This document shows, piece by piece, positions 10,671 to 61,294 of a stretch of 64,000 nt of DNA. Position 1 is the first letter of the stretch. Each line of letters opens with the position of its first letter. The stretch covers positions 29,946,001 through 30,010,000 of the forward strand of contig OZ024751.1 of NCBI GenBank assembly GCA_964016885.1. Direction: 5' to 3'. Under the pieces are notes generated by a model. The model had not been told where the DNA came from and did no database searches. It was given only the letters and a program-made list of their open reading frames with translations. Position numbers and translations under genes: made by a program. The stretch is from Eledone cirrhosa. Taxonomy: Eukaryota.

Positions 10671-10869
10671 GTTATTCCGGGTTGAATCGGGGGTAACCAC
10701 AGTAAGTAAGGTACTCAATACATAGCAGAGTATGCATATTTTAATATAGAAAAGCTTCTACAGGACTAGAACTGTTTAATTCGTGAAAAATCATCAAGGA
10801 GCGCTTCCTGATGATTTCTCACGAATGAAACCGTTCTAGTCCTCTACAAGCTTTTCTATATTAAAATAT
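10671..10869. mobile_element. Fold-back Penelope-like pLTR remnant (family P1)
   Basis: Inverted arms ~10736-10801 / 10804-10869 around agcgct, CTGATGA at 10808, same tail as the 2611 copy (taaccacWgtaagtaaggtactca), (TA)n on both sides. Confidence 0.6.
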
Positions 10870-39408: not shown

Positions 39409-39521
39409 AAACTTGTGTCACATGACCAATATCTTGTGACATGTGACCGAGATGAAAAGATTCGTATATCTCTCTACCCTAACTCCTACAACATACATTC
39501 CTATTGTCTCGGCCATACTGA
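39409..39521 (+). CDS. WDR4: Internal exon of tRNA (guanine-N7)-methyltransferase non-catalytic subunit WDR4/Trm82 (WD40 protein)
   Basis: Acceptor tcttacag (39401-39408), branch-point-like CACTAAC (39375-39381), donor GA|gtaagt at 39522. Phase-0 translation is [37 protein letters not shown](E), which carries the WDR4/Trm82 signature T-x-DRDEKIR-x(13)-CLGHTE. Too short for the ORF track. Confidence 0.93.
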
Positions 39522-50468: not shown

Positions 50469-52481
50469 TAGAGCAGAGGAGGAGAAGACCCAACACCAGT
50501 ATTGGACTGGTACTTAATCATTTATTGGCCCCTCAAAAAAATGAAAGCAAAATTGACATTGGCGGGTTTTGCAGAGAAAATACAAAATACCACAAGGTAT
50601 TTTATTCTATCCGACATTGTAGAAACTCTGCCAATTTTCCGCCCTTATAACCTTAATCATCATCTTGTATTATTGTTGTTGTCGTTGTATGTTGCTATTT
50701 TGGTAATGGGCAACAGTGTAGCAGAGAAAACAAAGAAATAGCCAGTTCTACTTCCCCCCCTGCCAGATATAGAAGTATTATAGGCAAATCCAAAATGAAG
50801 ACTAAAAGCAACATCTTCTGTTTTGATTAAACACCTGCTAGAAATACTTTCTCTCTTTTCCTAAAACCAACAACACTTTACATGGCACCAAACAAAGACG
50901 TTCTGGGACATCTTTAAATTGCTGCCAATCTTGTTGTTCACCGCGGTGTAATTTAGCTGACGGATATCGCTAACAAAACAGTATAATAAGCAAGCTGCTT
51001 GTATTTGAAGTAAGTCTTTATACCTAACAATGGAAGTGCTTGTGTCAGTGTCTGCTAGTTACAGCAGCCACAGTGACAGCAGTAGTAAAAGCAGCAACAG
51101 CAGCAGCGACAACAGCAGCAGAAGAAGAAGAAGGAGAAGATGATGATGAAGAATATGTTACTGTTGTTGTTGTTGTTCTGCATTTGCTGTCTTTGCACTG
51201 ATAACACCATGTATATAACTCTGCTTAAGGGCTAGCTAGGCTCGTAAGAATGTGGAAACCAATGTCTTAAGTGCTGACATTGAATTTTTGCATTTAATTA
51301 AATTCTGGTATAATATGGTCTTGTCTTCAGGGATACAACAACAACAGCAACAACAACTAAAAGAAGGGGTTGGTATGTAGGTGGGTTGGTGGGATGGTTG
51401 GGTTGAGTGTAGAGAATAGAAACAACAGCAACAACAACAACAACAAATGAAAGAAGCGGGTGCAGGTGGGTGGGATGGTTGGGTTGAGTGTAGAGAAACA
51501 ACAACAACAACAGCAAGGAATAAAAGAAGAGGTGTGTGATTGGGATGGGTGGCTGGGTTTGGGAGGTTAAGGTGAGTTGGGGTGGGTCGGGGTGGGTGTT
51601 AAAGAATGGAAATTTGAGACAAAAGGATTAAAGATTGAAGTCCTGTTGTAAGTTTTATATAATAAAGAAAAAACAAAAACTTTCATTTGAGGATTAATTG
51701 CAGTCAGTAGGCCTACTACTAACACCACCACCACCACCATGACCTCCATCATTACCAACAACACCACCATTATCATCATCATCACCACCACCACTACCAC
51801 CACCACCACTATCATCATCATCATCATCATCACCAACATTACCAACATCATCATCACCACCATCATCATCATCATTATTATCATTACCATCATCATCAGC
51901 AACATCCCGATCATCAGCATCATCAGCATCATCATCATCATCCTCATCATCATCACCATCATCACCACCATCATCATCATCATTATCATCATTATCATTG
52001 TTTTTGCTGTTTTATATGTCAGCATTGTCATCATTGCTGCTGCTTTATCTATCATCACTTCCATCATTATCATCTTCATTATCATCATCGCCATCGTCAT
52101 CATCATTACCTTCAGCACCATCGTCACCATCTTCACTGCCATTATAATCATTAATATCATCATCACCATCATTACCAGCTTCATCATTATCACCACCACC
52201 ACATCATCATCATCATCATCATCTTCATTACATTTATCATCACCACTATCTTCACCATTATCATTATCACCACCATCATCATTATTATTAGTATCACCCT
52301 TTAAACTCTGTTATCTGGGCATTTCAACCAAGAAGATGTCATGAGATAAAGTTGGTAATCTGCTGCAAGGTGTAAGACCATTAGTAGTATTATGTTGTAG
52401 ATGTGAAGTGTGGCTGCAACTCCATCAATATATATATATATAAAATAGAAAATAATCAGACTTTTGTTTAATGCATTTAAT

Positions 52482-52528
52482 TGCTGATGATCGTTTCTTC
52501 CAGACAAGTGTCTGGAATCATCAGAGCA
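52482..52528 (-). ncRNA. Minimal type I hammerhead ribozyme, paralogue of 60749-60795 with one stem III mismatch
   Basis: Minus strand reads TGCT-CTGATGA-TTCCAGAC(ACTT)GTCTGGAA-GAAAC-GATC-ATC|AGCA-attaaatg. Same 47-nt length and same downstream attaaatg as the other copy. Confidence 0.75.
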
Positions 52529-52689
52529 TATACAATGTTGTATTTCTGCTCTGTAATATATATGATATTTTACATTGAGCTAATTTTCTTACTGGTATTT
52601 GGGTAATACAAAATATTACCCTTTCTTATTTATAATTGTATATATATTATATATATAAGTATAAATATTATTATTATTATTATTATTAT

Positions 52690-60018: not shown

Positions 60019-60228
60019 ATTAGAAAGTGAACAACACAAAATATTACTACTCCATTACCAAAGGTTTCTGGATCCTAGACAATATTAATATATGTCTGGA
60101 TCTAGGATCCAGAAACCTTTGCTAATGGAGTAGTAATATTTTGTGTTGTTCACTTTCTAATTAAATAGCTCTGTTCTGTACATAGAGCACTCTTTTTTCC
60201 TTTGCTTTTCCTTCGGAATTACCTAACA
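60019..60228. mobile_element. Fold-back element (family P3)
   Basis: 61-bp inverted arms 60019-60079 / 60101-60161 with 1 mismatch and a 21-nt spacer. One-sided tail ends in (TA)n. The arms begin with a hammerhead-like 3' half, GAAACCTTTGGTA. Confidence 0.6.
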
Positions 60229-60748
60229 TATATATATGTATATGCAAAACGTAAACAGAAATAAAGCAAATGATACAGTCTAATGAAGAAATATATTAGT
60301 TTAATGAGTGATATAGTAGGAAAAGGATCTTGATGTTTCAGACGTGAGTCCTTTATATATATATATAAGGAAAAAAGATGAAATCGAAAATGCAACTGGA
60401 GTCTTTTTAAGAATATTTATTTGTTTCCTTTACCGGTTTCACAGTTCTTACGTTTTTCAAAAGTAGAATTGAGATGGAGGGTTTGTGGTTTTTCTTGCAT
60501 CTCAGATGTGAGAAAAATCACAAACCCTTATACTTGCACTCGTGTAGGACATCTCTTTTTTTTTTTCATTTTGAGAAAAAACCTCATTTTCTTATATATA
60601 TATATATATAAAATGATGATGATGATGATATAATAATAATGATACTATTTATAGTTATGTATATACTATACTATAAACAACTATAAATAGGAAAGGTCAG
60701 TAATTTATTACTACCTTATTACCAGGAAGAGAAATAGCTCATTGATAA

Positions 60749-60795
60749 TGCTCTGATGATTCCAAACTAAAGTTTGGAAGAAACAATTGTCAGCA
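60749..60795 (+). ncRNA. Minimal type I hammerhead ribozyme, intact core
   Basis: TGCT-CTGATGA-TTCCAAAC(TAAA)GTTTGGAA-GAAAC-AATT-GTC|AGCA. Stem I TGCT/AGCA, 8-bp stem II, GAAA, stem III within palindromic ACAATTGT, GUC cleavage triplet ending at 60791. Confidence 0.85.
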
Positions 60796-60857
60796 ATTAA
60801 ATGATTTGAACATAACTTTGATATTTGATATTTGTGTGTATATATATATAGATATAG

Positions 60858-60888
<31 letters not shown>

Positions 60889-61294
60889 TATGAGTTTATC
60901 ACTGAATGAAACAGTACTAGTCCTGTAAATTTTATGTGTGTGTGCGCATTATTTTGGCAGTGGAACAGAAAACCAAAATTAAGATACTTACCAAGATTAT
61001 GATGTCATGCATGATTACCTGCCAAAACAAGAAGATAAACTACCAATTCACCAATTCAACTGTAAATAGTTATAGCAGTGACTATTACTTATTTGTTTTC
61101 TAATGATGCAAAATCTGCTATATAAACATCAGACCTTGTTTCTTTTTGTTTAGTTAGGAGGAAGGGAAATGCTATTACCTTTTGTAGGGTCTCTGAAACT
61201 AATGAGAAGGAAGGTATCACCAAACCAGAAACCTGGTTAAAATTTTAGCAACTGGGGGGATTCTACTAAACCAAGGGGAAGGATGGTTCCACCT

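Follow-up and report, generated by a model that had tools for sequence, protein, structure and literature searches.

Does a hammerhead ribozyme that lies in sense orientation within an intron act on the RNA of its host gene, or is it a passenger of the sequence that brought it there? The question is raised by a motif near position 60749 of the window, the whole 64,000-nucleotide stretch of Eledone cirrhosa DNA analysed here. A preliminary description had assigned the motif to the WDR4 pre-mRNA and considered that it could cut the nascent intron. The evidence makes it very probable that this hammerhead forms the 3' end of a Penelope-like element (PLE) copy that is truncated and in part inverted. 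The copy lies in sense orientation within a WDR4 intron of 63 kb, and its hammerhead is likely inert there, a passenger that leaves the host RNA uncut.

The catalytic core and three stems were correctly described at 60749-60795. The letters are TGCT (60749-52), CTGATGA (60753-59), a stem II hairpin of TTCCAAAC, TAAA and GTTTGGAA (60760-79) and GAAAC (60780-84), followed by AATT, GTC (60789-91) and AGCA (60792-95). Another 47 nt lead to a (TA)n tract at about 60839, in agreement with the tail of ~45 nt noted earlier. A minimal-hammerhead descriptor that demands the core, at least 4 bp of stem II and at least 3 bp of stem I finds two motifs in the window, this one (+) and one from a sister subfamily at 52524 (minus strand). 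In 40 dinucleotide shuffles of the window the mean is 0.025 motifs and the maximum 1, and the hammerhead motif is not a product of chance. Rfam searches, proposed earlier as a check, returned no hammerhead match over the whole window at the gathering score; at E<=5, ten matches were obtained for 60400-61200, none of them to a hammerhead family.

Two details of the pairing scheme stood only in part. Stem I does pair around a single bulge, but the bulged base is 60795 (A40/T39/G33/C1 in 113 family copies) and not 60796, which is A in 109 of 113. Stem II had been given 8 bp, of which seven are conserved, but its bottom pair, 60760:60779, is not (60760 is C in 61 copies, T in 48 and A in 4). The conserved stem II is therefore 7 bp long and lacks a G10.1-C11.1 pair; in the family it is closed by U-A or by a mismatch. 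The copy at 60749 itself has a canonical CUGANGA...GAAA...UH core; its palindrome is perfect, and its stem II is closed at the base by U-A. Palindromes ACAAUUGU, ACGAUUGU and ACGAUCGU are all predicted to self-pair (-6.4, -5.8 and -10.0 kcal/mol). Judged by its sequence and its relatives, this is a real motif of known type: as in Penelope elements generally, the hammerhead is a minimal type I form whose stem III is palindromic. It resides in a mobile-element copy, as had been proposed.

Table 1. Coordinates of the hammerhead, the insertion that carries it and neighbouring features in the window
Feature	Position	Strand	Basis or remark
WDR4 coding exon upstream of the host intron	39409..39521	+	Exon matches
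Sister-subfamily insertion, same inverted-leader plus hammerhead layout, U4	52450..52683	- (antisense to WDR4)	
Left (TA)n + (GAT)n microsatellite flank, inferred target site	60593..60629	.	Window sequence
Inverted piece of element 5' leader ('tail')	60630..60744	-	94.8% identity over 115 nt to copy L073, where the leader continues to the ORF start
Element 3' terminus, ~95 nt (hammerhead + ~45 nt to commonest 3' end)	60740..60838	+	97% identity over 88 nt to ORF-bearing copy L039
Minimal type I hammerhead motif	60749..60799	+	Window sequence, relatives' alignment, covariation
Hammerhead stem I	5' arm 60746-52; 3' arm 60792-99 with bulge 60795	+	
Hammerhead core	60753-59; U4 = 60754	+	Family majority at 60754 is C
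Hammerhead stem II	60761-67/60772-78, plus loose pair 60760:60779	+	
Stem III palindrome ACAATTGT	60783-90	+	Predicted cut after C60791
Right (TA)n/(GA)n microsatellite flank	60839..60889	.	Window sequence

The preliminary description attributed the motif to a distinct non-autonomous element or retrozyme. Its parts map instead to an element with reverse transcriptase (RT) and GIY-YIG-type features, of which the insertion is a 5'-truncated, partly inverted fragment of about 200-210 bp, the smallest form of the usual 5'-inverted insertion (Table 1). The direct and inverted pieces overlap at the junction by 5 nt, four of which match. In DNA contigs, reads with loose ends at 60740/60741 continue as the parental sequence does. 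The 3' terminus contains a local 7-nt duplication at 60820-33. Other repeats occur in the window as well. In the sister insertion, the core CpG and one palindrome CpG have both decayed. Another repeat, starting CTGATGA...GAAAC, is found at 2751-2800 and 10808-10860 (+), each time after its own inverted copy; its core is hammerhead-like, a stem I is not evident, and a fragment also occurs at 60902-60927. Two long, near-perfect inverted repeats (MITE-like hairpins) occupy 60050-60160 and 60478-60528, just upstream of the element.

A DNA search of the 3.0-Gb genome gave 2,919 first-look candidates, of which 40 were scored. In long copies, the ~1.2 kb upstream of the hammerhead is a 3' UTR, preceded by a broken open reading frame (ORF). 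This ORF contains YRDD, which we take to be the RT motif, DKT rather than DKG (HADKTNNIY in L039), a CxCX5C linker, a C-terminal IIY...YIG and then CxxC and CxH. The N-terminal motif, for which RWK was expected, reads RWR in L073 and RWG in L039. The linker is CNCRSNRTC before IIY...YIG in L040, and its last Cys is mutated in L031. There is no CCHH cysteine pair inside GIY-YIG: one Cys lies between IIY and YIG, and the other residues read CNLC..E..N..SSCQH. A precomputed PF26215 annotation is carried by 10 of 19 ORF homologues. Pfam searches with five ORF pieces and four homologues gave no relevant family and a PDB profile search with the ORF gave no chains, so the RT and endonuclease call rests on motifs. 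In the relevant sections of Craig et al. (PMC8557442), the run of ORF features from YRDD to CxH is that which defines the Hydra clade, and (TA)n targeting is reported for Hydra PLEs. By its motifs, the parent is probably a Hydra-clade element. Its length, about 3.8 kb in L039, is above the <3 kb given for that clade, a figure stated only as 'generally' true and not as defining.

A search from the ORF start gives the order hammerhead, ~45 nt, ~130-nt leader and ORF, which is a pseudo-LTR arrangement. In relatives a hammerhead precedes the ORF leader and another closes the element at its 3' end. Among 170 copies, 69 end 40-59 nt past the cut site and 62 end 100-209 nt past it; 32 have no (TA)4 within 260 nt and seven end elsewhere. 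A (TA)4 follows within 260 nt in 138 of the 170. The two preferred copy ends match what Frangieh et al. (PMC11167929) present in part of their paper, a PLE tail delimited by two start points of reverse transcription. In a tandem transcript of the parent, the palindromes of two hammerheads may pair with each other, and cleavage would be slow and probably assisted by the element's protein. Reverse transcription would begin downstream of the cut site on uncut RNA, which would yield the two copy ends, and a template switch could have inverted the leader piece.

The leader at L073:1337-1495, whose inverted part is window 60630-60744, holds a possible intron, a feature also of other Penelope 5' UTRs: it contains GT donors, a branch-like CTAAC and a CAG that is separated from the ATG by one base. 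Penelope-type ORFs adjoining three family copies (L028:1650-3087, L021:3-758 (-) and L026:3-674 (-)) were rejected as parents: they lie directly past the (TA)n flank and are separate insertions. This arrangement suggests that a single microsatellite may receive insertions from several PLE families.

The claim that the motif is sense to WDR4 and that the intron extends this far is borne out. The host intron starts at donor 39522 and runs for 63,140 nt, past the end of the window, to an acceptor at C11:30048661, where a short exon missed in the first exon search begins at C11:30048662. All WDR4 exons lie on the + strand of this contig, from C11:29878796 to 30101264, and match WDR4 of Octopus bimaculoides at 63-87%. 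The predicted cut site is 21.3 kb inside the intron. WDR4 is a large gene, with coding exons that span >220 kb, introns of up to about 106 kb and strong CpG depletion. Within 244 kb that cover the coding exons there is no further sense copy of the family, and the only other sense hammerhead differs from the 60749 motif in palindrome and stem I. It is a minimal hammerhead of another family at L035:9334-9376 (C11:30029340, +), in the same intron and 22.6 kb downstream of the 60749 motif, with a canonical core, an ACTAGT palindrome and a 6-bp stem I.

Relatives of this copy bear on whether the fold has been maintained. In 113 family copies (121 minus eight misaligned), common variants fall at N7, the base after A9, one stem II wobble, loop II, one palindrome wobble, the stem I bulge and the core CpG. 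C3, A6, G8, A9 and G12-A15 are intact in 112-113 of the 113, partly as a result of the copies being found by and filtered on those letters. The search that supplied most copies relied on resemblance to the motif, which likewise biases upward the conservation of the motif relative to its flanks. Between subfamilies there are coordinated changes. The sister subfamily has one stem II pair changed from A-U to G-C and its palindrome from AAUU to GAUC, the palindrome occurs as AAUU, GAUU or GAUC across subfamilies, and another subfamily has GUA rather than GUC at the cut site. In 32 hand-picked copies, 91.8% of 608 cells are paired. Double-change cells number 20, compared with 6.2 in shuffles and with none of 500 shuffles reaching that count; the two covarying pairs do not exceed shuffles (407/500). 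This covariation amounts to two or three inherited events among those 32 copies. Since subfamilies differ by compensating changes in stem II and in the palindrome of stem III, the hammerhead fold appears to have been under selection in the element lineage.

A reading of the intact core as the sign of a selected, working copy is not supported. The lineage is about 90% C at core position 4, and its U4 copies look like scattered CpG-type changes. Exact patterns match 4,091 C4 copies (CCGANGA) and 461 U4 copies (CUGANGA) lineage-wide, with no matches for reversed-pattern controls. These 4,552 motifs in 2,996 Mb correspond to one per ~660 kb. By the same kind of exact pattern, the nearest subfamily has 481 CCGATGA, 46 CTGATGA and 18 CCAATGA; for the sister subfamily of 680 copies, CCG, CTG and CCA stand at 88, 9 and 3 among the first 100 listed. 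All ten hammerhead-like motifs of other families in the fetched loci have CU at this place. C4 is part of a CpG, which is prone to mutation, and a single change would restore the canonical core.

On a tree of 92 copies with two CpG columns removed, U4 requires 24 changes for 28 rows, while shuffled labels give a mean of 24.3; the tree excludes 29 of 121 copies, including that in the window, which were not full-length or lacked sequence upstream, and its bootstrap is not settled. Loci picked for U4 have a CpG observed/expected ratio of 0.59, compared with 0.82 for mostly-C4 loci (30 versus 29 loci, p=6e-4). The ratio for the WDR4 span is 0.31, and both family copies in WDR4 are U4. Because U4 copies form no clade and sit in CpG-poor DNA, CpG decay is indicated as their origin. 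In this copy, the canonical U4 is likely the result of a CCG to CTG deamination, either at the locus or in its immediate source.

Inverted pairs allow the two arms of one insertion to be compared. Nine of the fetched pairs include a U4 arm, and in all nine the opposite arm is C4. In at least seven pairs among the first 100 U4 places listed, plus one in the sister-subfamily listing, both arms are U4, and some U4 copies must thus predate insertion or have been converted. The window copy has no second arm and therefore offers no such internal comparison. U4 also outnumbers the opposite-strand decay product by 46 to 18 (p=6e-4), above the symmetric-decay prediction. Five upstream CpG sites are a poor control for this asymmetry because two of them show subfamily-level fixation (18/45 TG; 15/51 CA). 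These two were lost at the subfamily level, while in each subfamily encountered most copies retain the core CpG, a contrast that suggests selection for C4 and is not proof of it. Three DNA runs from one sample, at thin coverage, listed no variant at core position 4, and a pattern scan of metagenome contigs gave no match.

Folding predictions suggest what U4 does to the RNA. For the window copy as a monomer, the exact hammerhead fold has a probability of about 1.5e-6; the core is predicted to pair instead with UUGUCAG, which spans the cut site, and one of these base pairs has P 0.83. The inner stem I pair has P 0.25 in this copy and 0.86 in L014, which differs over 66 nt at position 4 only, and group medians are 0.12 (21 U4 copies) and 0.62 (54 C4). 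In free energy, the two groups are almost equally far from an active-like monomer (4.5 for U4 versus 4.2 kcal/mol for C4, p=0.08). A dimer is predicted to be 5.3 kcal/mol less stable than two free monomers, on energies that leave out tertiary contacts and proteins. Passages of PMC4209133 report no cleavage by a single Schistosoma minimal hammerhead and low cleavage by dimers. Those of PMC11167929 report that the anole PLE hammerhead cuts only with protein and is dispensable for insertion, and that RNA-seq showed no ends at its site.

The proposed cutting of the nascent intron is, by this analysis, unlikely rather than refuted: the copy is solitary and predicted to misfold, and its class is reported to be inactive as a monomer. 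With no compatible sense partner in 244 kb, with CUGA predicted to pair with UCAG at the cut site once U4 is present, and with Penelope hammerheads that are slow or need protein, cleavage of WDR4 RNA would be negligible. In our judgement, an engineered dimer at high Mg2+ has an even chance of cleaving; cleavage as a monomer is improbable, and a measurable effect on WDR4 is very improbable.

Rival accounts differ in what they ask of the ribozyme. It is highly improbable that the copy is an active hammerhead that cleaves the intron in nascent WDR4 RNA, whether unaided, in trans through a second WDR4 or an element transcript, or assisted by the protein of the element, and so alters WDR4 output, its activity having been switched on by the return to U4. 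The canonical core, perfect palindrome, U-A pair at the stem II base and sense orientation speak for that account, thousands of family copies could supply partners in trans, and U4 exceeds symmetric decay. Against this stand the empty 244 kb, the unfavourable predicted dimer, the mispairing of core and cut site, and a hammerhead class that is slow or protein-dependent in the cited sections of PMC4209133 and PMC11167929. Moreover, a density of one motif per ~660 kb should place copies in sense within the introns of many genes, and this one needs no special explanation. Membership in a retrozyme-like family of its own, non-autonomous and propagated through small RNA circles, is largely refuted and scarcely credible. 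At least ten other short copies share the inverted-leader plus hammerhead layout (L002-L011), but their junctions vary by copy, as independent truncations would, and every part maps onto the ORF-bearing element. Nor is there a tandem 150-450-bp unit or the canonical loop contacts described in part of PMC7229834; no tandem array was found in the repeat search or among 150 of 244 repeat rows listed, which end before this region. The truncated Penelope-like copy described above remains the preferred reading of the locus.

What maintains C4 in the lineage is a separate matter. Tentatively, and with less than even odds, C4 has been selected across many subfamilies of this Hydra-type Penelope lineage: it would throttle self-cleavage and spare the template RNA, block the CUGA:UCAG pairing, or both, and the ~460 U4 copies, including that in the window, would be natural revertants. 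Throttling would make sense with reverse transcription starting, as proposed, downstream of the cut site, so that cleavage would destroy the template. The predicted pairing of the inner stem I in U4 and C4 copies favours avoidance of misfolding, which as the sole reason is weakened by the GUA-site subfamily, where C4 is kept without UCAG, and by an Acropora digitifera PLE hammerhead that has CUGA together with UC-AGC. It is rather unlikely, though compatible with the fragment origin of the window copy, that the lineage hammerhead is no longer a catalyst, its fold being kept as a dimerising or protein-binding RT signal or as a pseudo-LTR DNA promoter with C4 as a tolerated relic. U4C lowers in vitro activity considerably in the account cited by PMC3088659, and anole elements with catalytic mutations insert unimpaired in the sections of PMC11167929 that deal with this point. 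Two inverted pairs, L104 (C2:48747533/48748390) and L105 (C5:89939483/89943313), have a G5A core change in both arms, so core-damaged copies were probably retrotransposed, or converted. Conversely, fixed subfamily changes fall at tolerated positions (N7 as T/A/G, loop II, bulge, wobble and compensatory pairs, GUC to GUA), the other core letters are almost invariant, in part through selection by search letters, and U4C is active enough in a viroid in vivo (PMC3088659). In a third reading, backed by the two G5A/G5A pairs, C4 is a frozen accident in a dispensable ribozyme. The function of Penelope hammerheads is treated as an open question in the relevant parts of PMC8557442 and PMC11167929.

The locus, then, is one of thousands of retroelement ends, ordinary in itself and probably without effect on WDR4; the family carries greater weight. 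Its lineage-wide U4C core is a modest, testable novelty. U4C as a family state was not found in the literature searched, although published supplementary or figure sequences may hold examples. On U4C in hammerheads only PMC3088659 was retrieved, on CCGANGA-type cores no PLE paper by title, and on cephalopods no hammerhead study beyond PMC8557442. The lineage offers matched natural alleles (C4 majority, U4, G5A) on otherwise identical backbones, and >4,000 copies can be used to measure which core alleles get copied. Descriptors in which CUGANGA is fixed see only about 10% of family copies and can miss about 90%, so some elements scored as hammerhead-less may carry a variant hammerhead.

A 2017 paper by Luense et al. 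is reportedly concerned with minimal type I hammerheads of Penelope-like elements. Those described in the available sections of Cervera and de la Pena (2014, PMC4209133) share with the present family the pseudo-LTR position, a stem II of 7-8 bp, a short stem I, an extra base after A9, a palindromic stem III for dimers, mostly solitary truncated copies and inverted pairs. The family here differs in having CCGANGA instead of CUGANGA and in lacking the G10.1-C11.1 pair that is frequent in them. With the Hydra clade of C-terminal EN+ PLEs, which includes Hydra-1_Obim of Octopus bimaculoides (parts of Craig et al. 2021, PMC8557442), it has in common DKT, the CxCX5C linker, CxxC and CxH around the endonuclease E/N, the lack of a cysteine pair in GIY-YIG, (TA)n targets, inverted 5' copies, a possible counterpart of the N-terminal motif in RW(R/G), and the loose pair at the stem II base, after which many Hydra-clade hammerheads in File S2 begin stem II with U. 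In contrast, all 26 Hydra rows of that file have a 'ctga' core and the Hydra-1_Obim hammerhead is different in sequence; the clade is generally <3 kb with a 30-40-bp tail, whereas the element here has ~3.8 kb, a ~1.2-kb 3' UTR and a ~130-nt tail.

More distant systems share single traits. Poseidon of Anolis (PAc), as covered in part of Frangieh et al. (2024, PMC11167929), also has two preferred ends downstream of its hammerhead, that is, an optional tail, and AT-rich targets. It belongs to another clade, and in it the beginning of the ORF falls within the hammerhead; in the element here the start codon comes ~220 nt after the cut site. Metazoan non-LTR retrozymes (sections of Cervera and de la Pena 2020, PMC7229834) likewise carry a type I hammerhead in a low-GC repeat, but as tandem 150-450-bp units with a canonical hammerhead rather than as a single fragment of an ORF-bearing element. 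The core substitution itself is that of a viroid U4C hammerhead which, according to a passage of PMC3088659 citing Ambros and Flores 1998, is weaker in vitro and sufficient in vivo. There it is a variant of a tertiary-stabilised ribozyme; here it is the majority state of >4,000 genomic minimal hammerheads.
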